Assembly (NCBI GenBank): GCA_049510215.1
Contig: JBEKZD010000003.1
Span: forward strand, 24,544 to 88,543
Direction: 5' to 3'
Origin: Verrucomicrobiia bacterium
GTDB taxonomy: Bacteria > Verrucomicrobiota > Verrucomicrobiia > Palsa-1439
DNA length: 64,000 nucleotides
A program made the translations under genes and the position numbers. The notes under the pieces are model-generated. The model was not told the DNA's origin, did not search any database, and saw only the letters and a list, made by a program, of their open reading frames with translations. Within the stretch, counting starts at the first letter, position 1, and each line of letters begins with the position of its first letter. Positions 30,338 through 57,211 of the stretch are shown piece by piece.

Positions 30338-30522
30338 TACGACCGCCCTTGGCTTATGCTGAGAGTCAATCGTTGGCCCGCTCACACTGCTGTCCGCAGA
30401 TTTCATAAAGAGTAAGGCTTCGCCCATCCCGCGCCTTGGCTCAGCGATCCGCCTTGACAGATCAGGCGGCATTCGGGGATTGTCTCATCCGCTGGGAGAC
30501 GGCAAACCGAGGAGGAATGAAT

Positions 30523-31302
30523 ATGGGGCAATTGCCTTCAGAACAAGCCGGACCAACCGCACCCCAGTCGTCGCTGATGGGACGGCTGGCGAATGTTTAC
30601 GCCGCACCGGGCGAGGTCTTCGATCAAGTCAAAGCCAGCCCGCCTTCCACCGCCAACTGGCTCGCACCGGTTCTGATCTTTATCGTCGTGGGTTGGGTGG
30701 GAGGGTGGCTCGTCCTCTCGCAAGCCTCGGTCAAACAACAGTTGCGCGACATCCAGGAACAGGCCATCCAGAAACAGGTGGACAAAGGCCGTCTGTCCCA
30801 GAAGCAGGCCGACTCCGCAATGCAGGCAGGGGAGAAGTTCGCCAACATCGGCGCCATAGCTGGCGTCGCGGTTGTAACACCACTCGCCGCCTTCGCCTCT
30901 CCGCTTTTATGGGGCCTGGCCGTCTGGCTGGTCGGCGTCAAGATCTTGAAAGGCAACTTCACTTACATGAAAGCCTTGGAAGTCGCGGGCTTGGCCAACA
31001 TGATCGGCGTGCTGGGTTCCATCGTCTGGACGCTGCTCATCCTGATCACGGGCAACTTCTTTGCTTCACCCGGCCTGATGCTGCTCGTCAAGGATTTCGA
31101 TCCGCAAAATAGCCTCCACTCCGTTCTCGCCGCGATCAACGTCATGACTTTCTGGGGGCTGGCCGTGAAAGCGATCGGACTGTCGCGCCTGAGCGGCGCA
31201 TCGTTTGGCAAGGCCGCAGTGTGGATCTTCGTGATTTGGGCCGCTTGGACCGGCTCGATGATTGGCATCGGTGCCGCATTCCGTGCTGCCTTTGGCGGGT
31301 AA
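30523..31302 (+). CDS. Yip1-domain membrane protein
   Basis: Five-TM Yip1-like topology. Start set to the ATG 7 nt after GGAGG. About 70% identical to the downstream paralog. Confidence 0.55.
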   Translation: MGQLPSEQAGPTAPQSSLMGRLANVYAAPGEVFDQVKASPPSTANWLAPVLIFIVVGWVGGWLVLSQASVKQQLRDIQEQAIQKQVDKGRLSQKQADSAMQAGEKFANIGAIAGVAVVTPLAAFASPLLWGLAVWLVGVKILKGNFTYMKALEVAGLANMIGVLGSIVWTLLILITGNFFASPGLMLLVKDFDPQNSLHSVLAAINVMTFWGLAVKAIGLSRLSGASFGKAAVWIFVIWAAWTGSMIGIGAAFRAAFGG

Positions 31303-31378: not shown

Positions 31379-31517
31379 CACCTGTCAGATCAACTTTGAC
31401 AGAAGCCCGCTCGCGCAATCACCAACGACTTTTTCAACAGCTTCATCCGTCTTGACAGAACCGTCAGCATCAGGGGATTGTCTCACTCGCTGGGACGGCA
31501 AGCCGCCGGGAAACACC

Positions 31518-32285
31518 ATGGATCAATTGCCTTCAGACCAAACCGGGCCAACCGTTCCCCGGTCATCCCTCATCGGACGGCTGGCGAATGTTTACGCCAC
31601 ACCGGGCGAGGTCTTCGACCAAGTCAAAGCCAGTCCGCGTTCCATCCTCAACTGGCTCGTGCCGTGCCTGATCCTCCTGCTCGTGGGTTGGCTGGGAACG
31701 CGGTTCGCCCTCTCCCAAGCCGTCATCAAACAACAGTTGCGCGACTACGAGGAACAAGGCGTCCAGAGACTGGTGGACAAAGGCCGAATACCGAAGGAGC
31801 AGGCTGACGCTGCCCAGGAAGCGGGGCAGGCCAGCCTCAATGTCCGTATCTCGTCTGAACCACTGTACAACGCGATCGCAGTCCCGTTTTTGTGGGCCGT
31901 GCTCTTCTGGCTCGTCGGGACCGTGCCCTTGAAAGGCAATTTCACCTACCTGAAAGCCTTGGAAGTCGTCGGCTTGGCAAGCATGATTACCGTGCTGGGT
32001 TCCGTCGTCAGAACGCTGCTCATCCTGGCCACGGGAAACTTCTTTGCCTCACCCGGCCTGATGCTGGTGGTCAAGGAATTCGATCCGCAGAACACGCTCC
32101 ACTCCGTTCTCGCCGCGATCAACATCATGACCTTCTGGGCGCTGGCCGTGAAAGCGATCGGGCTGTCGCGGTTGAGCGGCGCATCGTTCGGCAAGGCGGC
32201 AATCTGGGTCTTCGTGCTTTGGGGCACTTGGACGGCCCTGCTGATTACCGTCAGCGCCGGAGCCCGCATCGCCTTCGGCGGATAA
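31518..32285 (+). CDS. Yip1-domain membrane protein (tandem paralog)
   Basis: Collinear with 30523-31302. The upstream 90 bp is also duplicated. Confidence 0.55.
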   Translation: MDQLPSDQTGPTVPRSSLIGRLANVYATPGEVFDQVKASPRSILNWLVPCLILLLVGWLGTRFALSQAVIKQQLRDYEEQGVQRLVDKGRIPKEQADAAQEAGQASLNVRISSEPLYNAIAVPFLWAVLFWLVGTVPLKGNFTYLKALEVVGLASMITVLGSVVRTLLILATGNFFASPGLMLVVKEFDPQNTLHSVLAAINIMTFWALAVKAIGLSRLSGASFGKAAIWVFVLWGTWTALLITVSAGARIAFGG

Positions 32286-32509
32286 CGCCGGGTGTAAGGC
32301 AATCAGTTGGCAGCGGTCGTGGAGAAAGTGCGGCGGCAATTATTTCGTAACGAGACCTGACCCGATTACTGCTCCAGCCGTGCCCGCTCAGGCCGCCGTG
32401 TTCTACAATGGCAACTAGGTCTTCAGCGGCGGGTCGATTCTCGCGTGGCGAACACAGACATCCTCTTAGCGTTCTATTAGGGGAATGTCCATGGTCTGAC
32501 AATTGGGTA

Positions 32510-32539
32510 TTGACAAGTCCCTTATTATTCGGTATAAAT
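32510..32539 (+). promoter_or_regulatory. sigma70-like promoter (TTGACA, 17 nt, TATAAA) upstream of the first small HTH gene
   Basis: ttgacaagtcccttattattcggtataaat. The consensus is borrowed from proteobacteria, so function in this lineage is unproven. Confidence 0.4.
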
Positions 32540-32591
32540 CACACGCACAGTGAATATGGAAGGTGTGACTTAAAACTAAGGAGGAAGCTCA

Positions 32592-32813
32592 ATGGAAGGC
32601 GATGTGCTTAAGAGGATCGACCGCAAGCTTTCAGCCGTCATGGCGCTTATGGTCGAAGCGCGAGAAACTCGAACGGATGCGGAGTTGGATAAGATCGAGC
32701 TACTTTTGGGGCGGTGTGGGTTGAGCGCACCCGAAATATCGGAAATCGTGGACAAATCGACCGAAGCAGTACGGAAGGCGATTCAAAGGGGACGGAAAGC
32801 GAAACGGACATAG
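32592..32813 (+). CDS. small HTH protein (paralog 1 of 4), low-GC island
   Basis: 73 aa with a strong SD (GGAGGAAGC). C-terminal HTH-like SAPEISEIVDKSTEAVRKAIQRGRKAKR. Confidence 0.5.
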   Translation: MEGDVLKRIDRKLSAVMALMVEARETRTDAELDKIELLLGRCGLSAPEISEIVDKSTEAVRKAIQRGRKAKRT

Positions 32814-32822
32814 GAATGTAAT

Positions 32823-33038
32823 ATGGACGAACAAACAAAAACGGAAGCATTGCTGGAGGAAGCGGTTCGTCTGCTTGCCATCCTGGCCAAGCGAGGCATG
32901 AATCAAACGGCGACAATCGCTGAGCTAAGTAATGCAGGCTTTCAGCCGAAGCGGATTGCAGAGCTTCTCGGGACGACGGCGAACACTGTAAGCGTCACCC
33001 TGGCCACATCGCGAAAGCGGAAGAAGGGTAAGCGGTAG
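32823..33038 (+). CDS. small HTH protein (paralog 2 of 4)
   Basis: 71 aa. C-terminus IAELLGTTANTVSVTLATSRKRKKGKR is a sigma-70 region-4/LuxR-like HTH. Confidence 0.5.
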   Translation: MDEQTKTEALLEEAVRLLAILAKRGMNQTATIAELSNAGFQPKRIAELLGTTANTVSVTLATSRKRKKGKR

Positions 33039-33064
33039 ACGTAGGTAAATCCGGATGAAAGTAG

Positions 33065-33283
33065 GTGGTTGGAATGAGTAAAGCCAAAAGCGATAATGAG
33101 CTATTAGAGGAAATCGGCGGGAAACTAGATCTAGTAATCGCGTTGCTTGCGATTCAAGGTAAGGAGCAGGGTGCACAGATTAAGATCCTGTATTCTCTCG
33201 GCTTTGATTCGAACACGATTGGCCGCTTGGTTGGCATGTCAGGAACCGCAGTCAGAGTGAGGAAATTCCGCGGACGTAAGTGA
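33065..33283 (+). CDS. small HTH protein (paralog 3 of 4)
   Basis: C-terminus IGRLVGMSGTAVRVRKFRGRK. N-terminal LLEEIGGKLDLVIALLAIQGKEQ shares the pattern seen in paralogs 1, 2 and 4. Confidence 0.5.
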   Translation: MVGMSKAKSDNELLEEIGGKLDLVIALLAIQGKEQGAQIKILYSLGFDSNTIGRLVGMSGTAVRVRKFRGRK

Positions 33284-33301
33284 GGTTCCGCGTCAGGCAT
33301 C

Positions 33302-34105
33302 ATGGACTTACAGGAGATGATTCTTCGCGGGCGCTTTATTTTTTCGGGGGCTGGCCAGCGCCTCAGGGTATATGAACTGGTAAACGGTAAGCGGAACACT
33401 GCCGAAATCGCCAGACTTGTTAAGCGTCATGTGAACAACGTCCGTCGGGATCTTACGATTATCAATGATGCAGAGCTGATCCAACCAAAGATGAAAAATG
33501 GTCAGTCGTTAGAGTCGAATGGCTTTCCGGTCTACGAAAAAGTGCCGCTTGGTAGGACTGTCCCCCTCAGCTACTTCGAGGGGCCGCCGGCACGCCTTCC
33601 CGCTTCCTCGGTAACGGCCACAGCGAAATCATCTTCGAAGGGTTATGTGACCAAGAAGCCCTCCGCTCTCGGGCTGCCAAGCGAGACGGAAATTCTGGAT
33701 ATCTGTAGGAACGGCGAGGATCAGATTTCCGAGTTCAAGGGACAAGGAACTGACTTTAATAAGATTAGCCGTGAGGTGGCCGCAATGCTCAATACTCGGG
33801 AGGGAGGCAGGGTTTTTTACGGAATCGACGACGCGGGCACAATTCAAGGCAGCGACATTTCTCGGCAACAATTCGACCAAGGGCTGCAGAATTCTATTCG
33901 AAATACAATTTCTCCGGCTGCGACGGTGAGACTACACTCCGTGTCCGTCGTGGGCTCGGAGGTCCTTGTGGTCATCGTGCCTCCGTGGAACAGAAGTGAT
34001 GTATATCAATTCGAAGGGCGTGTTCTCCTTCGAAAGGGCACAAATGTCTTCTTCGCGAAACCGGAAGAAAGCAAGAAACTTCACAAGGGGATTTACGTCG
34101 TCTGA
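33302..34105 (+). CDS. winged-helix HTH plus Schlafen-like AlbA_2 domain protein
   Basis: N-terminal ArsR/MarR-like HTH (NTAEIARLVKRHVNNVRRDL). C-terminal ISEFKGQGTDFNKISREVAAMLNTREGGRVFYGIDDAGTIQG...VLVVIVPPW matches the AlbA_2 (PF04326) consensus. Confidence 0.6.
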   Translation: MDLQEMILRGRFIFSGAGQRLRVYELVNGKRNTAEIARLVKRHVNNVRRDLTIINDAELIQPKMKNGQSLESNGFPVYEKVPLGRTVPLSYFEGPPARLPASSVTATAKSSSKGYVTKKPSALGLPSETEILDICRNGEDQISEFKGQGTDFNKISREVAAMLNTREGGRVFYGIDDAGTIQGSDISRQQFDQGLQNSIRNTISPAATVRLHSVSVVGSEVLVVIVPPWNRSDVYQFEGRVLLRKGTNVFFAKPEESKKLHKGIYVV

Positions 34106-34128
34106 CATGAGAGGAGGTTATTCTACCA

Positions 34129-34326
34129 ATGCCGAAGACTAAGAGAAACTCCACGCGAGAAGATCCAGCACTCAAAGAGTTGCAGCGGATCAGAAATCTG
34201 CTGATGCTTTGCTTAATTAAGTTGGGGGCCGATTCAAAGGAGCTTGATTTGGCTGTCGGGATGGGGTCCAGCAACATTCGAGCGATGCTCCCGATCAAGC
34301 AAATTGAGAAAATTCTAAAGGACTAG
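34129..34326 (+). CDS. small HTH protein (paralog 4 of 4)
   Basis: 65 aa with SD GAGGAGG. LKELQRIRNLLMLCLIKLGADSKELDLAVGMGSSNIRAM follows the same pattern as paralogs 1-3. Confidence 0.45.
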   Translation: MPKTKRNSTREDPALKELQRIRNLLMLCLIKLGADSKELDLAVGMGSSNIRAMLPIKQIEKILKD

Positions 34327-34396
34327 TCACGCTGCAATAAGGCGGTTCAAGGAGTTCTTGGGCGAGGCGTTGCTTCCCTGTTCTCTCCCGTCCGGC

Positions 34397-35884
34397 CTAG
34401 ACCTTCCCGGTTTCGAGGCCGAAGTAATCTTTCGCGTTGCCGAAGCAGATGTTGCGGACCATCGTGCCGAGCATTTTCATGTCGCGGGGTAGTTCGCCGT
34501 TGACGACGTCGCGGCCGAGGAGGTTGCAGAGCAGACGGCGGAAGTATTCGTGCCGCGAATAACTCAGGAAACAGCGCGAGTCGGTCAGCATGCCGACGAA
34601 CCGGCTGAGCAGACCGAGGTTGGACAGCGCGTTGATCTGCCATTCCATCGCTTCCTTCTGATCGAGAAACCACCAGCCGCTGCCGAACTGGATTTTGCCG
34701 GGCACGCTGCCGTCCTGGAAATTGCCGAGCATCGTGGCGAAGGCGTAGTTATCGGCGGGATTCAAGTTGTAGAGGATCGTTTTCGGGAAACGATTGGTCG
34801 AGTCGAGCCGGTCGAGATAACGCGCCAATGCCTCGGCCTGCGGCCAGTCGCCGATCGAGTCGAACCCCGTGTCGGCGCCGAGCGTGCGCATCAGGCGTGT
34901 GTTGTTGTTGCGCAACGCGCCGAGGTGCAATTGCATGACCCAGCCGCGCGCGGCGTAGAGTTCGCCCACAAACAGCAGCATGAAGCTGCGGAACTTGTTG
35001 GCCTCCGCTGGGGAGACCTTCTTTCCACTGCGGGCGTCTGCGAAAATGCGCGCCGCCTCGGCTTCGGTGCAATCGTCGGCATACACGTGATTCAACCCGT
35101 GATCGGAAAGGCGGCAGCCGTTGTCGTGAAAGTAACGATGCCGTTTCCTGAGCGCGTCGAGAAAGCCGCTCAAACTGCGGCATTCCACGCCACTCACCTG
35201 CCCGAGCTTGTCCACCCAGGCGTTGAACGCGGCTGGCTGGTCCACCGTCAACGCCTTGTCGGGCCGGAACGCCGGGTACACCCGCGTACCCAGTGGTTTG
35301 GTGGCGCGGGCGTCCCTGCCTGCGGATTGTGATTCGCGGATCTTCCGGTGATGTTCGAGCGAGTCGGTCGGATCGTCCGTCGTGCAGACGACCGCGACGC
35401 GATTTGTTTCAAGGATCGTGTGCACGGGCATTTTGGACAGCTTGGCGTTGGCCGTATCCCAAATCTCTTTCGCGGTGGACTCGTCAAGCAACTTGGTGAT
35501 GCCGAAGAACCGTTTCAATTCGAGGTGCGTCCAGTGATAGAGCGGATTGCGCAGCGTGTACGGCACCGTACGGGCGAAGGCGAGGAACTTCTCCCAGTCG
35601 CTGGCGTCGCCGGTGCAATACTTCTCCGACACGCCGTTGGAACGCATCGCGCGCCACTTGTAATGATCGCCCCCCAGCCAGACTTCATAAAGGTTGCGGA
35701 ATACTTTGTTGGCCGCAATCTGGTCGGGCGGCAGATGCGTGTGATAATCGAAGATCGGCTCGTGCTTGGCGTGGTCGTGGTACAACTCCCGCGCCACGTC
35801 ATTCTGCAGCAGAAAATCATCCGTAAGAAAAGTTCTGGTCGTCTTGGTTGTCTTGGCCGCTGGTTTGGTCTTGGTGCGTTTCAT
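34397..35884 (-). CDS. uxaC: glucuronate isomerase
   Basis: DFLLQNDVARELYHDHAKHEPIFDYHTHL is the UxaC N-terminal signature. Full-length conservation, with a short Lys/Thr-rich N-terminal extension. Confidence 0.85.
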   Translation of the reverse strand: MKRTKTKPAAKTTKTTRTFLTDDFLLQNDVARELYHDHAKHEPIFDYHTHLPPDQIAANKVFRNLYEVWLGGDHYKWRAMRSNGVSEKYCTGDASDWEKFLAFARTVPYTLRNPLYHWTHLELKRFFGITKLLDESTAKEIWDTANAKLSKMPVHTILETNRVAVVCTTDDPTDSLEHHRKIRESQSAGRDARATKPLGTRVYPAFRPDKALTVDQPAAFNAWVDKLGQVSGVECRSLSGFLDALRKRHRYFHDNGCRLSDHGLNHVYADDCTEAEAARIFADARSGKKVSPAEANKFRSFMLLFVGELYAARGWVMQLHLGALRNNNTRLMRTLGADTGFDSIGDWPQAEALARYLDRLDSTNRFPKTILYNLNPADNYAFATMLGNFQDGSVPGKIQFGSGWWFLDQKEAMEWQINALSNLGLLSRFVGMLTDSRCFLSYSRHEYFRRLLCNLLGRDVVNGELPRDMKMLGTMVRNICFGNAKDYFGLETGKV

Positions 35885-49231: not shown

Positions 49232-49732
49232 CTAGTCTGTGATTTTAATTCCCTTATCAGTCGCTTTCACCAGCCCTGACCAACTCGCGCCGTCCGAAGG
49301 TGTTGGCTGACTGGTGTGCGCAGCCTTGAGTATGTACTTACCGGCTTTCTTGATATCGTAGTAATTGTTGAAGTTGAATCTTGATTCGACACTCTTACCG
49401 GGTTCAACAGTAGCCCAAGATGGAGGAAAGTCCTTGAATGGGCCTGCATAACGAACGCTCTCCCCGTCCCGTACCACGGCAAACGTCCACAACTCATCCG
49501 CCTGCCCGTCCGACTTAACAACTCCAACACCTGCACCCGGTGCATGCAATTGCGCGACCGTGACTTTGTTAGTAGATGTGTTGGTCAACCTCAGTATAAC
49601 CATTACATATTCGCCGACACGATAAGAATCCTTGTCTGTAAGTATCTCGTATCGGAAAGGAACATCGTCGGTTGCTGCATTGGCAGGAACATGACAAATC
49701 AGTACGAGCAGAGCGAGTGTGATGATTCTCAT
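49232..49732 (-). CDS. hypothetical secreted protein embedded in the dehydrogenase operon
   Basis: Signal peptide (MRIITLALLVLICHVPANA). Lower GC than its neighbours. Lies between the E1 and E2 genes on the same strand. Confidence 0.45.
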   Translation of the reverse strand: MRIITLALLVLICHVPANAATDDVPFRYEILTDKDSYRVGEYVMVILRLTNTSTNKVTVAQLHAPGAGVGVVKSDGQADELWTFAVVRDGESVRYAGPFKDFPPSWATVEPGKSVESRFNFNNYYDIKKAGKYILKAAHTSQPTPSDGASWSGLVKATDKGIKITD

Positions 49733-49747
49733 GTGGCCATAATCTCC

Positions 49748-52051
49748 TCACAAAATTGCGTTGGCAGCCTGCATCAGGTCGTTGACGTTCGGCAGGAATG
49801 CCGCTTCGAGGATGTGCGACTGCGGCGCGATGCCGTTCTTGGCACCGACGCGTTTGACCGGCGCATCGAGGTAGTCGAAGGCCGCGTCCTGAATCGTCGA
49901 GGCAACCTCGGCGGTGTAACTGCCAATATGGATCGCCTGGCTGGCCACAATGCACCGGCCCGTCTTTTGGACGGAGCGGACAATCGTGTCCACGTCCAGC
50001 GGCACGAGGCTGCGCAGGTCAACAACCTCGGCGCTGACGCCGCGCTCCGCCTTGAGTTTGTCGGCTGCTTTGAGGCAATCGTGGACGACGGGGCCCCATG
50101 CGACGAACGTGAGATCGCTCCCCTCGCGTTTCACGTCAGCCACGCCCAGCGGGACGAGGTATTCGCCCTCGGGCACCGGGCCTTTGACGCCGTAGAGGCC
50201 TTGCGACTCGACGAACATGACCGGGTTGTTGTCGCGGATGGCCGCCTTCATCATGCCCTTGGCGTCGTAGGGCGTGGCCGGATAAACGACGTAGAGGCCG
50301 GGGATGTGGCAGAAAACGGATTCCAACGTCTGGCTGTGCTGGCCGCCGTAACCTTTGCCGGCGCCGACCGACGCGCGGATGACCAGCGGCACTTCGATCT
50401 GCGCGCCACTCATGTAATGCCACTTGGCGGCCTGATTGCTGATCTGGTCGGAAGACATCAACGCAAAATCCATGTACATCAACTCGACCACGGGCCGCAG
50501 TCCTTTCATGGCGGCGCCGACCGCCGTGCCGCAGATGCAGGCTTCGCTGATCGGCGTGTTGAATACACGATCACGCCCGAACGCCTCCAGCAAACCCTTG
50601 GTCAGCTTGAACGCGCCGCCATACTCGGCCACGTCTTCGCCATAGAAAATCACGCGGGCATCGCGTTTCATCTCCTCAACCAACGCCTCCTTGATGGCGT
50701 CGCGGTAGGTGATCTGGCCATCGGTGCGTTTCACCACGGGCAATGCACCGACCAACGTGACCTTCTGGAACCCGACCGGCACGGTCTCGCACTTTGTGTC
50801 GGTGTACATGTATTTGATCACGTCGGCGGCCGGAGGATCGGCGGCGGCGGCCGCGCGTTTGGCGGCGCGGGTGTTCCGGTCGCGAACGCGCTGCTCGACG
50901 GCTTCAATTCCAGCTTTGGCGAGCGCCTTGCAGTCGAGCAGTTGTTTCTTGAATGTCTCGATGGGGTCCACGGCCTTCCACGCGGCTTCCTCTTCCTTGG
51001 TGCGATACTCGTTGCGCGGGTCGCTGAGCGAGTGTCCCCAGTAACGATACGTGTCCACGTCGAGCAACACCGGCCCTTTGCCTTCGCGGCAGAGCTTGGC
51101 CGCCCGCTGCACGGCGTCGCGAACGGCGAGCACGTCCATGCCGTTGACAATCTCGGCGTGCATGTTGTTGTTGGCAAACCCCGCCCCGCGCCGCGCCATC
51201 TGGTCAATGCCCATCACCTCGTCGTCGCTGCGGTGGGTCATGCCGTAGTGGTTGTTGACGATGAGGTAAATGATCGGCATACCGAACTTGTGGTCGCCGG
51301 CCAGGTAGTTGGTGAACTGCGCTTGCGTGGACCAGTTGAGCGACTCGAGCACCACGCCGTTGGCAAACGCGCCGTCGCCCGCAAAACAGCACACCACGCT
51401 GTCGGCCCGCAGATAACGGTTGGCCAGCGCCGCGCCCGTGGCAATCGGCACGCCGCCGCCGACGATGGCGTTGGCGCCGAGGTGGCCGACGGTGAAATCC
51501 GCGATGTGCATGCTGCCGCCCCGGCCTTTGCAGTAACCGTCGTCCTTGCCGAACAACTCGCAGATCGTCCGGTAAAGGTGTTCTTCGAGCGCCGCTTCAA
51601 GCAATTCCTCGCGCGTCGTGGCCGTGCAACCCGGCACGCGCGCCTTGAGCTGCTCGGCGCTCATGTTACGGATGGCCACCGTGCCTTTGGCGAGCGATTC
51701 GCCGTGGCCGCGGTGCGTGCTGGTGATGTTGTCCACAATCCGCAACGCCGCGCACGCGCCCACCGCCGTGCCTTCCTGCCCGACCGATACATGCGTCGGC
51801 CCGCGGTAATCATAGGCCGGCAACGGTTCGTAGCCGCCCGACCGCAACCTGACGATCATCTCCTCCAACTCGCGGACGATCAGCATGTCCTCCAACAGCG
51901 CGACGGCCTCTTCCTTGGCGATCGTCTTGGCCTTCAATGCGCTCTTCAGATCGCCGGCGTAGCGGTAAGCGGGGATTTTGCCGCAATTGATTTCAAACGG
52001 CTCGAAGTCCGGCCGCATGTCGCTCAGATAAACTGGTGATGCTGCTTCCAT
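49748..52051 (-). CDS. 2-oxoacid dehydrogenase E1 component, fused alpha and beta subunits (TPP-dependent)
   Basis: 767 aa. N-terminal E1-alpha TPP-binding region (GDGAFANG..., NNHYGM) and C-terminal transketolase-like E1-beta region (ISEACICGTAVGAAMKG). SD AAAGGAA 7 nt before the ATG. Confidence 0.85.
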   Translation of the reverse strand: MEAASPVYLSDMRPDFEPFEINCGKIPAYRYAGDLKSALKAKTIAKEEAVALLEDMLIVRELEEMIVRLRSGGYEPLPAYDYRGPTHVSVGQEGTAVGACAALRIVDNITSTHRGHGESLAKGTVAIRNMSAEQLKARVPGCTATTREELLEAALEEHLYRTICELFGKDDGYCKGRGGSMHIADFTVGHLGANAIVGGGVPIATGAALANRYLRADSVVCCFAGDGAFANGVVLESLNWSTQAQFTNYLAGDHKFGMPIIYLIVNNHYGMTHRSDDEVMGIDQMARRGAGFANNNMHAEIVNGMDVLAVRDAVQRAAKLCREGKGPVLLDVDTYRYWGHSLSDPRNEYRTKEEEAAWKAVDPIETFKKQLLDCKALAKAGIEAVEQRVRDRNTRAAKRAAAAADPPAADVIKYMYTDTKCETVPVGFQKVTLVGALPVVKRTDGQITYRDAIKEALVEEMKRDARVIFYGEDVAEYGGAFKLTKGLLEAFGRDRVFNTPISEACICGTAVGAAMKGLRPVVELMYMDFALMSSDQISNQAAKWHYMSGAQIEVPLVIRASVGAGKGYGGQHSQTLESVFCHIPGLYVVYPATPYDAKGMMKAAIRDNNPVMFVESQGLYGVKGPVPEGEYLVPLGVADVKREGSDLTFVAWGPVVHDCLKAADKLKAERGVSAEVVDLRSLVPLDVDTIVRSVQKTGRCIVASQAIHIGSYTAEVASTIQDAAFDYLDAPVKRVGAKNGIAPQSHILEAAFLPNVNDLMQAANAIL

Positions 52052-52076
52052 GATATGTTCCTTTGGGTCGCCTGGG

Positions 52077-52856
52077 TCAGGCGCGCACGATTTTGATTCC
52101 TTTCTTGATCAGTTCTTTTGCGAAATTCTTGTCCACCCGTTTGTCCGTGATCAGCACGTGCACGTGGTCCAATCGTCCCGTGCGCGCGAACGACACTTTA
52201 CCAATTTTGCTGCTGTCAGCCAGCAGAATCACCTGCCGGGCCTGGCTCATGACCAATTCCTTTGTGTACGCCTCGCTCGGGTCGGTCGTCGTCACCCCTT
52301 CTTTCAATGTCAATCCGATCGTCCCCATGAACGCTTTGTCCACGTGCAACTCCGCCAAGGTCAGTCGCGTCAACGGTCCGACCATCGTTTGGCTCAGCCG
52401 CCGCAGTTCGCCGCCGATCAAGATCAGCCGCGGCCCGCGCCCCGCGAGTTCGTGCGCGGCGCGCAAGGAGTTGGTGACGACCGTGATATTGGTCCGGTCG
52501 CGCAACAGCCGCGCAAACTCCAGCACCGTGCTGCCGCCGTCGAGATAGATCGTATCGCCCGCCGCGACATAATCGAGCGCCGCCCGGGCAATCCGCTGCT
52601 TCTCCTTCGTGGACATGGAGGCCTTGTCGTCAAACAGCGGCTCGTCCATCCGGCTGTCCATGCTGACCGCGCCGCCGTGCACGCGCTGGATTTCGCCCAG
52701 TTCCTCCAGCCGCGCCAGGTCGCGGCGCACCGTCGCGGGCGAAGCGTGCAGCTCGCGGCACAGATCCTCCACGCGGACGACCCGGTTTTGGCGCAACGCC
52801 GAGCGCAGCCGGTCCCACCGTTGCGGCGCGAGGTCTTTTTGATCAAGCCCAGTCAT
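52077..52856 (-). CDS. DeoR/GlpR-family transcriptional regulator
   Basis: N-terminal HTH (RVEDLCRELHASPATVRRDLARLEELG) plus DeoR C-terminal sugar-phosphate-binding domain. Confidence 0.85.
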   Translation of the reverse strand: MTGLDQKDLAPQRWDRLRSALRQNRVVRVEDLCRELHASPATVRRDLARLEELGEIQRVHGGAVSMDSRMDEPLFDDKASMSTKEKQRIARAALDYVAAGDTIYLDGGSTVLEFARLLRDRTNITVVTNSLRAAHELAGRGPRLILIGGELRRLSQTMVGPLTRLTLAELHVDKAFMGTIGLTLKEGVTTTDPSEAYTKELVMSQARQVILLADSSKIGKVSFARTGRLDHVHVLITDKRVDKNFAKELIKKGIKIVRA

Positions 52857-52877
52857 GATTACTTGTGATTAGTTACG

Positions 52878-53078: not shown

Positions 53079-53414
53079 GCCCGCGCGAGGGGTGGATTCC
53101 TTTTCTTCGTGCTTGAAAGTCATCGCCCTGAAGCACAGACTCGCGGTGATGGCGGCAATGTTTCAGGAAATCAAACAGTCCCTCCATCGGCTGTACGGCG
53201 AAGATGCTCACCCGTGGATGATGAGGTTGAGCAGCAGGAGCACTGGCACCGTCGTCGAACGCGACAAAGCCAGCGAAGGTTTGCTCGCTGCCGGCGACGA
53301 ACGCATGGAAGACATGATCGCCTTCCGCGACCCCGCCAACGGCTTGAAGCCGTCCGGCACCAGTGAATCAGATGACGCTTGGTATTTCGTACAAGCGATC
53401 TGAAAGGACGTAGC

Positions 53415-54047
53415 ATGGCAATCAAAGATGAAATTCGGACGATGGCCAACCGGTACGCTGCGGAGCTCAAAACCAGCATTGATGCGCGCGTTGTCGAGAT
53501 GGAGCAGGATGACCGCTCCCACGTCCTTATTTACCGAGTGCTTGGGATTAGTGAACCGGAAGGCAAGCTCATTGACGTTTATCAGAACAAGGGACGGTTC
53601 GTTTACAAGTATGCTGGCTCATTCCTTGAAGAGGCTGCAAAGCTTTGCTTCAAGAAGAACTTCCCGCAGTCGGGATCGCTACGCGTCCCAAACACCCACG
53701 GGCAACGACCGAAAACATTTGAGATTGATTGCTTGGTTGGCACTGACGCTTTGGAAATCAAGTGGAGGGATGCAACGACAGACGGCGATCATATCACGAA
53801 AGAGCACACTCGGATAAAGGCGATATGCGACGCTGGGTACAAGCCAATCCGAGTGATGTTCTATTATCCGAATCGTGACCAAGCGATCCGGATTCAGCAA
53901 GCGTTGGAGAGTATATACAAGGGCGTGCATGGAGAGTATTATTACTCAGACACTGCATGGGATTATGTGAAACGGCGAACAGAAATTGACCTGCTCGGAA
54001 TCCTTAAGCAACTTGCTGGGGAAAGGAGCGCACAACGTGAGCAGTGA
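53415..54047 (+). CDS. putative type II restriction endonuclease (PD-(D/E)xK-like)
   Basis: FEIDCLVGTDALEIKWRD fits a D...ExK catalytic motif. About 210 aa. The 3' end overlaps the methyltransferase start by 11 nt. Low GC. Family not identified. Confidence 0.4.
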   Translation: MAIKDEIRTMANRYAAELKTSIDARVVEMEQDDRSHVLIYRVLGISEPEGKLIDVYQNKGRFVYKYAGSFLEEAAKLCFKKNFPQSGSLRVPNTHGQRPKTFEIDCLVGTDALEIKWRDATTDGDHITKEHTRIKAICDAGYKPIRVMFYYPNRDQAIRIQQALESIYKGVHGEYYYSDTAWDYVKRRTEIDLLGILKQLAGERSAQREQ

Positions 54048-55245
54048 GGTCCGGCAAGGTGACTGCCTGGAGGTTCTGCAGAGACTGGATTCTCAGTCGG
54101 CTGATCTCATTTATGTTGACCCGCCTTTTTTCACCCAGAAGACGCACGCTCTGGTCACTCGTGACCGTACCGCGACTTTTCAGTTTAGCGACGAATGGAA
54201 TTCCCGCGACGAATATTTGAACTTCCTTCGTGATCGTTTGGTTGAGTTCAACCGTGTGCTCAAGCGCACCGGCTCGATTTTCTTTCATTGTGACACGAAC
54301 GCATCCCACCACATCCGCTGCCTGCTTGATCGTGTATTTGGAGAAAGTATGTTCCGCTCCGAAATCATCTGGCACTATCGTCGTTGGTCAAACTCCCAGC
54401 GCTGTCCGCTGCCGTCGCATCAGACCATCTACTTCTACAGCAAGTCGGACGACTACAAGTACAATCAGGTTTTCGAAAAATACTCGCCCTCGACAAATGT
54501 TGACCAGATTTTGCAGCGCCGTCGACGCGATGAACATGGCAAATCCGCTTACGCACGCGACGAGAACGGCAATATCATCTATGATGGGCACAAGAAGGGC
54601 GTGCCAATGTCTGACGTGTGGGACATCCCCTTCCTGAATCCCAAGGCAAGGGAGCGAGTCGGTTATCCGACTCAGAAGCCAATTCTGCTACTCGAACGCA
54701 TCATCTCTCCGGTCACGAACAAGGGTGATTTCGTGCTCGACCCCTTTTGCGGCAGCGGCACAACGCTTGTCGCTGCCGAACTTCTTGGACGGAATTCACT
54801 TGGCATCGACATCGCCGCCGAAGCTGTGAAACTTGCTGCGGAGCGATTGAAGCAGCCGATAAAGACATCGTCTGAGTTGCTGCGAAAAGGCCGCGATGCC
54901 TATGTTGAGTCCGACGAAGAGGCATTAGCCTATTTGCACGGTTTACAAATAGTAGCGGTTCAACGGAATCGCGGGATTGACGCGATCATTAAGACACCTC
55001 CAGGCGAGAATCCTGTTCTTATCCGAGTTCAGCGGCAGGGCGAGCTACTCCTCGATGCGGCAGAGCAACTCCACCGCGCCGGGCTGAGTAAACAGCCAGC
55101 CACACTTATACTTATCGCCACGGATGAGACGCAGTCAGCAGGGCTCTTTGACCTGCTGCCCACAGGAGTCACGGTTGTGAACTCGACGCGCAAGGAAGTC
55201 ATGGAACTACTGAACACTAAGGTGTTCAGCAACTTGTTCAGATGA
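54037..55245 (+). CDS. DNA methyltransferase, beta-class N6-adenine/N4-cytosine (N6_N4_Mtase), with a ~130-aa C-terminal extension
   Basis: Motif IV LIYVDPPF precedes motif I DPFCGSGTT (beta-class order). GTG start with AAAGGAG 7 nt upstream (the ORF is open from 53986). The C-terminal extension (GIDAIIK...LIRVQRQGE) is not part of the MTase core. Confidence 0.8.
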   Translation: MSSEVRQGDCLEVLQRLDSQSADLIYVDPPFFTQKTHALVTRDRTATFQFSDEWNSRDEYLNFLRDRLVEFNRVLKRTGSIFFHCDTNASHHIRCLLDRVFGESMFRSEIIWHYRRWSNSQRCPLPSHQTIYFYSKSDDYKYNQVFEKYSPSTNVDQILQRRRRDEHGKSAYARDENGNIIYDGHKKGVPMSDVWDIPFLNPKARERVGYPTQKPILLLERIISPVTNKGDFVLDPFCGSGTTLVAAELLGRNSLGIDIAAEAVKLAAERLKQPIKTSSELLRKGRDAYVESDEEALAYLHGLQIVAVQRNRGIDAIIKTPPGENPVLIRVQRQGELLLDAAEQLHRAGLSKQPATLILIATDETQSAGLFDLLPTGVTVVNSTRKEVMELLNTKVFSNLFR

Positions 55246-55264
55246 CCCATCGCAGCATCATGCC

Positions 55265-57211
55265 ATGACAGAACTGAAACAAAGTCTCTTTGCTGAACTG
55301 CCTTTCATCTTCGGATCGGATTTCCTTCGCGACCATGCGGGGCATCTTATCTCAGAGCCGCGCATAGCCATCGTTGAGTTGATTGCCAATGCGTACGATG
55401 CCGGGGCAACCGAAGTGAAAATAGCGTGGCCTGACGAGGCAGGCGGTCACTTCGAGGTCGCTGACAACGGGACGGGGATGACAGCCGAGGAATTTCACCG
55501 CCGGTGGAGGACTCTGTGCTACAACCGCATGCACGAGCAAGGTCAAATTGTCCAGTTTCCTCCCGGAGTAAAACAGAAGAAGCGAATCGCATTCGGCACG
55601 AGCGGGAAAGGGCGGCACAGCGCATTTTGTTTTGCTGACTCTTATGAGGTCGAGACGTGGAAGGATGGAAGGTCAATCACTGCGCTCGTAAGAATGACAG
55701 AAGGCGGTAACGAGCCCTTCCACTGCGCGGTGCAAGGGGAAACCGACAAGAAGGGTCACGGAACAAGGCTCTCGGCGGAGGTTGCTCGACGGTTGATACC
55801 GGTCGAGCAGATACGGGAATGGGTCGGCTCGAAGTTCGCCGTCGATCCGTCCTTTGCAGTTGTTATCAATAGGCAGCGTCTACAACTACTCGATCTGAAG
55901 GCTCTCACGAGCAGTGAGATTGATGTCGAGTCGTATGGAAAGGTCGTGATTCACCAGATTGATGCCGCTGCCCAAGACCGGTCCACACGATTGCGGGGCA
56001 TTACATGGTGGGTCAACAAGCGAATGGTCGGACAGCCATCTTGGGACGGACTCGATGAGAGAGGCGCGATTCTGGATGGTCGAACGGCTGCGGCTAAGAG
56101 ATACAGCTTCGTTATCGAGGCGGACTTTCTGAAACCAGACCTGAAGGACGACTGGACTGGTTTTCGCGATACTCAACGGTCGAATGTGGTGCGGGAATCT
56201 GTGCGCACCCATGTGATCAGGTTGTTGAACGATCTGCTTGCTGGTACTCGCAAGGAAAGAAAGAAGGCTGCCTTGGCAGAGAACAGGAAGGCACTGGGCG
56301 AGCTTTCACGGCTTTCGCGGAAGGTCCTCGGGCATTTTGTAGATGAGATTCAAGAAAAGTGTCCAACGCTCTCCCAAGGAGATCTGGCCCGAACCGTAGA
56401 GGTGTTCACAAAGATGGAGCAGGCCCGAAGTGGCTATGACCTCCTATACCGGTTGGCAGCGTGTTCGCCCGATGATCTGGACACTTGGAATAGGCTGATG
56501 CAAGAATGGACCGCGAGCAATGCCGAGGTCGTTCTTAGAGAACTCGGCAGACGGCTTGAGCTAATCAAGCAGCTTCAGTCGCTCGTGCATACCGCGACGA
56601 CAGATGAACTGCACGACTTGCAGCCGCTATTCGCACGCGGGCTTTGGATATTTGGGCCAGAATACGAGGCGGTCGATTTCGCTTCCAATCGTGGCATGGC
56701 GTCGGTCATTCGTGAACTGCTTGGTGGGACGGAAACTGAGGTGGCTCGCCTCCGCCCCGATCTTGTGGCTTTACCAGACAGGTCTATCGGTGTGTATGCA
56801 GCCGATTCGTACGATGAAAGCGGTGAGGTGGCTGGCATCAGAAAGGTTTTGATCGTCGAACTCAAGAAGGGCGGCTTCACAATCACGCGTGAAGAGCTTC
56901 GACAAGGTGAAGACTATGCGCTCGAAGTCCGAAAAGCGAACTTGGTTCGTGCTGACACTGAGATAATCGTATATGTCTTAGGCGATTCATTAGGTGACGA
57001 TGCTCAAGAAAGAACTGTCGGAAAGGCGACGAAGCTCATACCGATGATGTACGACACAGTTCTCAAGAAAGCACACGCTAGGACGTTTAACCTCCAGAAG
57101 AAACTCGAAGCAAACCAGCTTCGGATTGAAACAGATGTAGAAGTCGAAGAAGTCCTTGCCCAACCGGAACAGCAGGAGCTTCCCGAACAGGCTAACTCAA
57201 TTCTTGGTTAA
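55265..57211 (+). CDS. MORC/MutL-like GHKL ATPase with a C-terminal PD...ExK nuclease-like motif
   Basis: Bergerat-fold motifs ELIANAYDAGATEVKI (N box) and VADNGTGMTAEEF (G1 box). C-terminal RPDLVALPDRS...KVLIVELKKGG resembles a PD-(D/E)xK site. Starts 20 nt after the MTase stop. Confidence 0.55.
   Translation: MTELKQSLFAELPFIFGSDFLRDHAGHLISEPRIAIVELIANAYDAGATEVKIAWPDEAGGHFEVADNGTGMTAEEFHRRWRTLCYNRMHEQGQIVQFPPGVKQKKRIAFGTSGKGRHSAFCFADSYEVETWKDGRSITALVRMTEGGNEPFHCAVQGETDKKGHGTRLSAEVARRLIPVEQIREWVGSKFAVDPSFAVVINRQRLQLLDLKALTSSEIDVESYGKVVIHQIDAAAQDRSTRLRGITWWVNKRMVGQPSWDGLDERGAILDGRTAAAKRYSFVIEADFLKPDLKDDWTGFRDTQRSNVVRESVRTHVIRLLNDLLAGTRKERKKAALAENRKALGELSRLSRKVLGHFVDEIQEKCPTLSQGDLARTVEVFTKMEQARSGYDLLYRLAACSPDDLDTWNRLMQEWTASNAEVVLRELGRRLELIKQLQSLVHTATTDELHDLQPLFARGLWIFGPEYEAVDFASNRGMASVIRELLGGTETEVARLRPDLVALPDRSIGVYAADSYDESGEVAGIRKVLIVELKKGGFTITREELRQGEDYALEVRKANLVRADTEIIVYVLGDSLGDDAQERTVGKATKLIPMMYDTVLKKAHARTFNLQKKLEANQLRIETDVEVEEVLAQPEQQELPEQANSILG

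Follow-up and report, generated by a model that had tools for sequence, protein, structure and literature searches.

A mobile five-gene island joins an array of small helix-turn-helix genes to a Schlafen-family gene in a Verrucomicrobiia genome

We have identified a compact five-gene block in a 64,000-nucleotide stretch of DNA from a Verrucomicrobiia bacterium, known from a metagenome-assembled genome (GenBank assembly GCA_049510215.1, contig JBEKZD010000003.1, positions 24,544 to 88,543; the whole stretch is referred to as the window, and positions are counted from its first nucleotide). Four small helix-turn-helix (HTH) proteins, named here mini-HTH proteins s1 to s4, and one protein of 267 amino acids (aa) that joins a winged HTH (wHTH) to a Schlafen (AlbA_2) domain are encoded head-to-tail on the plus strand, in the order s1-s2-s3-Schlafen-s4 and with intergenic gaps of 9 to 35 nt. 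All five open reading frames (ORFs) lie on that strand where a sequence-only reading of the window had placed them, and all five genes are called in public assemblies. The link between mini-HTH array and Schlafen gene is tight, ancient and conserved. With moderate confidence, we regard the block as a self-contained, horizontally mobile biological-conflict operon, serving either defence against phages and mobile elements or addiction, with an RNase as effector and the mini-HTH proteins as its control.

The association was assessed in 29 good Schlafen loci, taken from one genome per species, together with four metagenome loci (33 in total). The 29 loci span Acidobacteriota, Anaerolineae, Actinomycetota, Gemmatimonadota, Muproteobacteria and four groups of the Candidate Phyla Radiation (CPR), and, within the Archaea, Micrarchaeota, Bathyarchaeia, Aenigmatarchaeota and Methanosarcinales; altogether, homologous loci cover about ten phyla of both domains. 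Homologues of the Schlafen protein, 40–64% identical, are spread over Acidobacteriota, Chloroflexota, Actinomycetota, Gemmatimonadota, CPR bacteria and four lineages of Archaea. In 31 of the 33 loci, one or more mini-HTH ORFs (E ≤ 1e-5) were found within 1.5 kb of the Schlafen gene, and the density of such ORFs was 0.97 per kb near this gene vs 0.018 per kb at distances above 3 kb, a 54-fold difference. Nearby mini-HTH ORFs are mostly on the same strand (89 of 93) and upstream (80 of 93). A mini-HTH cluster around an AlbA_2 protein, which the sequence-only reading had considered unusual, is accordingly a conserved association and no one-off. Two Acidobacteriota loci with an intact Schlafen gene are exceptions, one having no mini-HTH ORF (L009) and the other a marginal one only (L007).

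The arrays consist of one to six genes, and clustering of their 111 small proteins by sequence gives 35 to 69 groups, according to the cut-off chosen. Three subtypes recur, represented by s2, s3 and s4, and in 10 other loci an s4-type gene immediately precedes the Schlafen gene. Elsewhere, array genes often have start-stop overlaps.

The Schlafen protein and its mini-HTH neighbours

The wHTH-Schlafen (AlbA_2) protein (33302..34105, plus strand) is the predicted RNase effector. Pfam assigned its residues 139–248 to SLFN_AlbA_2 (PF04326; E 8.3e-18, 65.5 bits against a cut-off of 25.3), and the Pfam match of the N-terminal wHTH was weak. The AlphaFold2 (AF2) model (24 homologues, pLDDT 86.7) comprises a wHTH (aa 1–92), a disordered linker (aa 96–116) and an alpha/beta AlbA_2 fold (aa 128–261). 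Foldseek matched the C-terminal domain to the bacterial AlbA_2 protein 3lmm (2e-7), the N-domain of pig SLFN11 (1e-6), the tRNase domain of SAMD9 (2e-5), SLFN12 (8e-5) and SLFN14 (1e-3), and the N-terminal domain to ArsR/MarR repressors.

Human SLFN11 and 5,930 prokaryotic Schlafens share the Ex4(E/D)xK motif, which has been defined as catalytic, and its mutation abolished defence by RorSlfn5 (PMC13056530). In the window it was read from the sequence (GEDQISEFK) as the Ex4ExK form E139-D-Q-I-S-E144-F-K146, encoded by 33716..33739 on the plus strand; E139, E144 and K146 are invariant in 24 homologues. EDQxxEFK (ESQxxEFK in one case) stands at the same position in 29 of the 33 other loci; for two further loci the regular expression caught an earlier chance match, and the last two carry stop codons. 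The N-terminus of the effector carries the nearly invariant stretch MDLQELIxRGRF, and the subfamily has at least 579 members, all of 260–270 aa. Judged from sequence and model, the protein belongs to the prokaryotic Schlafen (pSlfn) family with its catalytic motif intact, and the wHTH plus AlbA_2 architecture proposed from the sequence was thereby recovered by domain, fold and motif. Four Schlafen copies, three from Bathyarchaeota genomes and one from an Acidobacteriaceae genome (L029, L030, L032 and L033), contain 2–11 in-frame stops and look decayed; two of the four still keep the motif.

Three mini-HTH genes precede the Schlafen gene: s1 (73 aa; 32592..32813), s2 (71 aa; 32823..33038, NCBI locus tag ABSH21_02655), which is the most widespread subtype, and s3, which is 69 aa long from the ATG at 33074 (33074..33283), the position where gene callers begin it, or 72 aa from the GTG at 33065. 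The fourth, the shortened s4 (65 aa; 34129..34326, ABSH21_02670), follows the Schlafen gene; all four are on the plus strand. The AlbA_2 gene, described earlier as surrounded by small HTH genes, does have them on both sides, in an asymmetric arrangement of three upstream and one downstream. Ribosome-binding sites precede s1 (AAGGAGG), s3 (AGGTGG) and s4 (GAGGAGG).

The small proteins have a common build, with a long N-terminal helix bearing the motif LxxKLDxhIxLL, a sigma-region-4-like three-helix HTH and, in s1–s3, a basic tail. The s2 protein carries the conserved motif IAELLGTTANTV; 58 small homologues of s2 were found, and its AF2 model (pLDDT 91.5) shows four helices, the first of 21 residues followed by three more. 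Smith-Waterman comparison with shuffled sequences related s1 to s3 (z 6.8) and s2 to s3 (z 8.6; 0 of 500 shuffles as good), gave weak scores for s1-s2 (z 2.4) and s3-s4 (z 3.6) and was not significant for s1-s4 and s2-s4. A profile of 13 s4-type proteins was joined to the other types by hhalign (probability 88.6%, E 2.6e-6), with the s4 type lacking about 13 residues that correspond to the first helix of the HTH scaffold. On the strength of this alignment all four proteins are assigned as paralogs, as the sequence-only reading had held, s4 being a shortened subtype. A homology search with s4 only, bound by its word index, returned just s4 itself and its ortholog in the metagenome cassette L039 described below.

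The closest described folds are Sigma-70 region 4 and the LuxR-GerE HTH. Matches to Pfam Sigma70_r4_2 and HTH_23 are all sub-threshold (Sigma70_r4_2: 24.5 bits for s1 against a gathering threshold of 25.7 and 16 bits for s2; s3 and s4 unmatched), and s4 has no Pfam match at all. Fold matches, all local and weak by E-value, were consistently to DNA-binding HTH units, namely TraR, NarL, SigR region 4 and a resolvase. Unlike those families, the mini-HTH proteins stand alone at 55–100 aa, possess a distinctive long N-terminal helix, are devoid of sigma region 2, receiver or ligand domains and remain below the Pfam cut-offs.

A mini-HTH profile search of 1.84 billion representative sequences yielded 3,020 clusters at 50% identity (E ≤ 1e-3); among the best 150 clusters listed, nearly all have 55–110 aa. 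One protein of 156 aa (P0309) is a natural fusion of two full-length mini-HTH units. Separately, several long proteins of 489–1,108 aa (P0179, P0180, P0182, P0185, P0197 and others) contain 5–12 tandem repeats of an HTH unit of about 45 aa; the match of these repeats to the mini-HTH profile is confined to its HTH part.

A foreign island at a variable site

The inserted low-GC island (32304..34377) is situated between the stop codon of a Yip1-like gene, paralog 2 of a pair, which precedes the block (31452..32285, plus strand; ORF call, Pfam and public gene callers), and that of the convergent uxaC, coding for glucuronate isomerase (34397..35884, minus strand; Pfam UxaC, 3.6e-198). Both are host genes outside the cassette. 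The Yip1-like gene is the second of two tandem membrane-protein paralogs (30436–31302 and 31452–32285) with about 77% nucleotide identity, as seen through the relative L046; the pair is also present in relatives. The GC content of 32303–34377 is 0.513 vs a window mean of 0.587 (sd 0.023 for windows of 2,075 bp), which makes it the lowest-GC stretch of its size in the 64 kb, equally low windows amounting to 0.16%. Third-position GC (GC3) is 0.51–0.62 in island genes vs 0.73–0.80 in the flanking genes. The low-GC island of about 2 kb between Yip1 and uxaC, pointed out in the sequence-only reading, is thus evident from composition, and so is the near-consensus promoter it had noted: a sigma-70-type TTGACA-17-TATAAA (32510..32538, plus strand) with hexamers at 32510–32515 and 32533–32538 and a 17-nt spacer between them. 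The consensus promoter scanner skipped it, as this program demands T at position 6 of the -10 hexamer. The L039 cassette (78%-related) keeps both hexamers and their spacing, with a diverged spacer sequence. Upstream of the promoter, a non-coding block GCCGCCGTGTTyTAC (32387..32402, plus strand) is also kept in L039 amid diverged surroundings and is possibly an operator. An Rfam scan of 31500–35000 gave no match, and the non-coding sequence before and after the genes folded no better as RNA than shuffled sequences did.

In relatives, which were fetched from metagenomes through the second Yip1 paralog, different things follow this gene. In one of them (L047; 82% protein identity), the stop codons of Yip1 and uxaC are about 50 bp apart, which represents the empty site and identifies the block as an insertion. 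A closer relative (L046; 94%) has a different, unannotated insert of 1.55 kb (L046 5789–7335) at exactly the same place; its by-eye reading, from translations, as Panacea-like and IS110-like remnants was unsupported by Pfam and has been withdrawn. In a third (L048; 83%), Yip1 is followed by a 1,031-aa Type ISP restriction-modification enzyme (Type_ISP_C, E 3e-88; L048 5950–9045); nothing similar to uxaC was detected at this locus. The island limits follow from these comparisons, since homology to relatives breaks at 32302 on the left and resumes near 34378 on the right.

A second full copy of the operon was found on a 116-kb metagenome contig (L039), with the same gene order (74, 71, 69–73, 267 and 65 aa) and between unrelated genes, a tRNA methyltransferase on one side and a fatty-acid desaturase. 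Nucleotide similarity to it (73.8%) is confined to 32574–34328, and the five proteins are 74–78% identical to their L039 orthologs (74% for s1, 75% for s3), with even divergence across all five genes. The dN/dS ratios against L039 are 0.095 for s1, 0.10 for s2, 0.078 for Schlafen and 0.155 for s4; as dS is saturated for s3, the ratios come from four genes. These four measurable genes are under purifying selection. In another locus (L041), the surroundings of the cassette look like a conjugative element: they include genes for a relaxase, a coupling protein, a serine recombinase and a tyrosine integrase, and an integrase adjoins the cassette. The operon is a foreign, horizontally mobile island, intact and self-contained. 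Of the earlier suggestion that it might be a remnant of a mobile element, mobility holds, given the empty site, the L039 copy and the L041 integrase; the operon is, however, whole and self-contained, so that ‘remnant’ does not apply.

Selection also disposes of the idea that these are chance ORFs in an AT-richer intergenic stretch with no real feature behind them. The ORFs are short, and the missing Pfam match of s4 would fit such a view. It is refuted by dN/dS of 0.10–0.16 for s1, s2 and s4, by the 75% identity of s3 to its ortholog, by the 3,020 family clusters, by the confident AF2 model and by the synteny in 31 of 33 loci; we leave it practically no weight. The sequence-only reading had itself allowed that the small ORFs might have no homologues; homologues were found.

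The simplest guess for the insertion is recombination exchange in the flanking genes. No integrase gene was found at the island edges in the window, no tRNA gene in the whole 64 kb, and no terminal direct or inverted repeats or target-site duplication at the island above chance level (an example of a chance-level match is a TAAGGC hexamer shared by both ends).

The same facts bear on an origin of the island as an anti-defence or otherwise phage-derived cassette, for instance a prophage regulatory remnant whose small HTH proteins would be repressor- or excisionase-like. HTH DNA-binding families of phages in PHROGs match s2 weakly (E 1e-4), and at one homologous locus the surroundings consist of small ORFs with no annotation and an Endonuclease_7 gene. 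Nevertheless, relatives of the Schlafen and s2 profiles were found neither in IMG/VR nor among 50,697 GenBank phages. The island lies between Yip1 and uxaC, and its edges show neither the integrase nor the att-like repeats named in the sequence-only reading for an ordinary prophage-regulatory remnant, nor a tRNA gene. In these respects it does not conform to an integrated prophage or integrative-element remnant; it is moreover intact and under purifying selection. We hold such an origin to be very improbable, and the anti-defence option raised earlier lacks support, as IMG/VR and the GenBank phages yielded neither component.

PLSDB plasmids yielded a single match, marginal and partial, and none of the five proteins had a significant match in PADLOC, PHROGs or NCBIfam. 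Within 5 kb of the 29 genome loci (214 neighbour ORFs), the recurring families include type I restriction-modification subunits, Eco57I, TdeIII, AbiEi/AbiEii, AAA_15/21 ATPases, Fic, RhuM and transposases, in a mixture with housekeeping genes; type II and ISP restriction-modification genes also recur. The assembly collection lists the identical 267-aa protein in 95 blocks; of the four contigs given for it, three derive from JGI metagenomes, which we take to be peat-bog samples.

Elsewhere in the window, 53379–57211 encodes an ApaLI-like restriction endonuclease (RE_ApaLI, E 5e-94) and, overlapping with it, a DNA methyltransferase of the N6_N4 family, together with a MORC-like GHKL ATPase of 648 aa (HATPase_c_3). 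Since this segment has the second-lowest GC in the window (52–53%), it is probably a second acquired defence islet. Just upstream of these restriction genes, 49544–52868 contains two long ORFs (831 and 272 aa) with no Pfam match at E ≤ 0.01.

Arrays with other effectors

The contexts of six s2 homologues were inspected, and no Schlafen gene is present in any of these loci. Three arrays (L050, L052 and L053) are followed by a 297-aa protein with a wHTH-like N-terminal region (L050 6158–7051, L052 5642–6535, L053 6019–6912). A 292-aa homologue of it (L041 7119–7997) lies between array and Schlafen gene in the L041 cassette described above, and in L059 the array precedes a 252-aa protein (L059 5883–6641) that shares the C-terminal domain by eye, extending the family to 250–297 aa; the L059 gene adjoins an AAA_15/21 ATPase, an integrase and an excisionase-type HTH gene. 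The C-terminal domain of this family is marked by DWGGEKND ... KG ... LGKNGDQIQRLF, had no sequence match in Pfam or the PDB, and may be a new effector domain. In L051, which otherwise matches L050, the array is followed by a Hypoth_Ymh gene and a shortened copy of the 297-aa gene. One array (L056–L058) precedes a 226-aa HEPN_Swt1 protein, and the array in L054 reaches the contig edge in a fragment read by eye as Swt1-like. Both the Ymh and the Swt1-like domains belong to the HEPN RNases (PMC3710099).

Because the same kind of array precedes HEPN-Swt1, HEPN-Ymh and the 297-aa wHTH protein, we interpret it as a front end for control or sensing that can be reused with one effector or another. 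A search for an N-terminal domain common to the Schlafen protein and the 297-aa family gave no more than a weak match at wHTH level (hhalign E 1e-3, probability 22%), and the hidden Markov model (HMM) of the Schlafen N-terminus found nothing in the HEPN and 252-aa effectors. Arrays with HEPN or 297-aa-type effectors also include proteins of 99–100 aa (L056 3634–4254, L059 7208–7507), in which an N-terminal helix xRLDxIxxxLQL is combined with an apparent winged HTH instead of the three-helix HTH.

Proposed function and relation to known systems

By analogy with RorSlfn5 and CbCash, the effector would be kept inactive until a trigger arrives; once triggered, the RNase, probably a tRNase, would cleave tRNA or other RNA and stop translation, leading to aborted infection or a limited invader. 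Conserved synteny, and synteny only, suggests that the mini-HTH proteins are obligate partners of the effector. Most likely they would form a hetero-oligomer that binds DNA and represses the operon, restrains the RNase in the manner of an antitoxin, or does both, and their loss or displacement during infection would release the RNase. That they act together is suggested by synteny, by the two-unit fusion P0309 and by the frequent start-stop overlaps. It is speculation that the N-terminal helices (LxxKLDxhIxLL in the small proteins, MDLQELIxRGRF in the effector) provide the interface.

Several observations weigh against a conflict operon of this kind. The part given to the mini-HTH proteins derives from gene order, their fold match is local and not significant by E-value, and no operator repeats were demonstrable upstream. 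PADLOC holds no model for any of the five proteins. The island sits between housekeeping genes, with the nearest restriction system (the ApaLI-like one) about 19 kb away, and many homologous loci have housekeeping neighbours as well. Four partners per toxin do not correspond to the ordinary toxin-antitoxin pattern. Finally, the wHTH-Schlafen protein could have a regulatory, DNA-binding role in place of a nuclease one. AlbA_2 has long been annotated as a DNA-binding domain, and the homologous domain of SAMD9 (7ksp) binds DNA. The HTH-fused Schlafen class is catalogued, but was not among the seven systems tested (PMC13056530).

Taken to its full extent, the view of the protein as a regulator becomes a purely regulatory cassette: all five proteins would have belonged to a mobile element, now degraded, as its transcription factors or nucleoid-associated proteins, and AlbA_2 would bind nucleic acid and have no nuclease activity. 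An HTH in every protein is compatible with this, as are the AlbA_2 structures of SAMD9 (7ksp) and 6rr9, deposited as DNA-binding or DNA/RNA-binding, and the several mammalian Schlafens devoid of catalytic residues (PMC13462974). On the other hand, it is difficult to see why an Ex4ExK motif should be invariant across Bacteria and Archaea in a protein with no catalytic activity, the array's other partners are RNase families, and the island has no other element genes to regulate. We rate a purely regulatory role as rather improbable.

The conflict operon we favour has parallels in type II and type IV toxin-antitoxin modules and in Abi modules that have HTH antitoxins (e.g., AbiEi-AbiEii and HEPN modules; PMC3710099, PMC2701414), where small DNA-binding genes are likewise located upstream of a nucleic-acid-targeting toxin in one operon, and which are likewise mobile, patchy in distribution and found near restriction-modification genes. 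The five proteins showed no detectable sequence relation to known antitoxin families in Pfam, PADLOC, PHROGs and NCBIfam. These likenesses lend themselves to a narrower interpretation as an addiction module that stabilises a plasmid or other element and has no role in phage defence: the Schlafen RNase would be the toxin and one or more of the mini-HTH proteins labile antitoxins or autorepressors, so that loss of the cassette kills the cell. A compact operon in which the genes of small DNA-binding proteins precede that of a nuclease, occurrence at unrelated sites and within a conjugative-element-like region, and HEPN RNases, which are classic toxins (PMC3710099), as alternative partners all agree with it. 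In contrast with the two-gene type II pattern and its single antitoxin, there are four small genes here and one to six elsewhere, arrays of three to six diverged paralogs standing in for one antitoxin, and the effector has a wHTH of its own. The insertion hotspot and the restriction and Abi neighbourhoods fit defence at least equally well. We consider addiction with no defence role unlikely; it overlaps with our proposal, as addiction and abortive-infection defence are not mutually exclusive.

Prokaryotic Schlafens with Ex4ExK are anti-phage tRNases, as has been shown for two differently fused members (PMC13056530, PMC13462974). Perez Taboada et al. (Nat Microbiol 2026; PMC13056530) catalogued 5,930 pSlfn proteins, 8.8% of which are HTH fusions, and found 69.6% of pSlfn genes within 10 kb of a defence gene; the members tested, RorSlfn5 with an Ig-like sensor and EcoSlfn7 with DUF262, are single-gene systems of Enterobacterales. 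The protein in the window resembles these in its single Schlafen/AlbA_2 nuclease domain with Ex4(E/D)xK motif and fused accessory domain, in its patchy spread over bacterial and archaeal phyla and possibly in a partial association with defence genes. It differs in that the accessory domain is an N-terminal wHTH and in that mini-HTH genes accompany the Schlafen gene, whereas the tested members are encoded by single genes. The main text of PMC13056530 contains no mention of mini-HTH genes that we could find. Cash, the CRISPR-associated Schlafen (Csx15-Slfn; PMC13462974), is a further Schlafen tRNase effector; it is controlled through a fused dimerising sensor domain, stays inactive until signalled and cuts tRNA loops. 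The operon described here has, by contrast, no CRISPR, CARF or Csx15 element, and its partners are separate small HTH proteins. The effector is already known, as a member of pSlfn and of a catalogued HTH architecture class; the array in combination with Schlafen or HEPN effectors appears to be new. We found no description of such arrays in the searchable literature, beyond which further papers may exist.

Tentatively, and with clearly less confidence than we place in the operon itself, the mini-HTH array might be a widespread modular front end, in which a hetero-oligomer held together by the N-terminal helices senses a nucleic-acid or protein cue and gates Schlafen, HEPN-Swt1, HEPN-Ymh or ‘X’-domain effectors. 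Such systems would constitute a new family of multi-gene defence systems in Bacteria, CPR bacteria and Archaea, whose specificity parts are separate, diversifying small proteins and not fused sensor domains.

Schlafen RNases have been known as bacterial anti-phage effectors only since 2025–2026, always as single proteins with fused sensors. The cassette would be a multi-gene Schlafen system, and its accessory mini-HTH array is common to HEPN RNases and to an effector of unknown type. If the array is a sensor or control module, it would represent a new and very widespread architecture, with 3,020 clusters in both prokaryotic domains, would open a way to study defence in lineages of soil and peat that have not been cultured, including Verrucomicrobia, Acidobacteria, CPR bacteria and Bathyarchaeia, and would provide a compact 2-kb operon that is directly synthesisable and testable.

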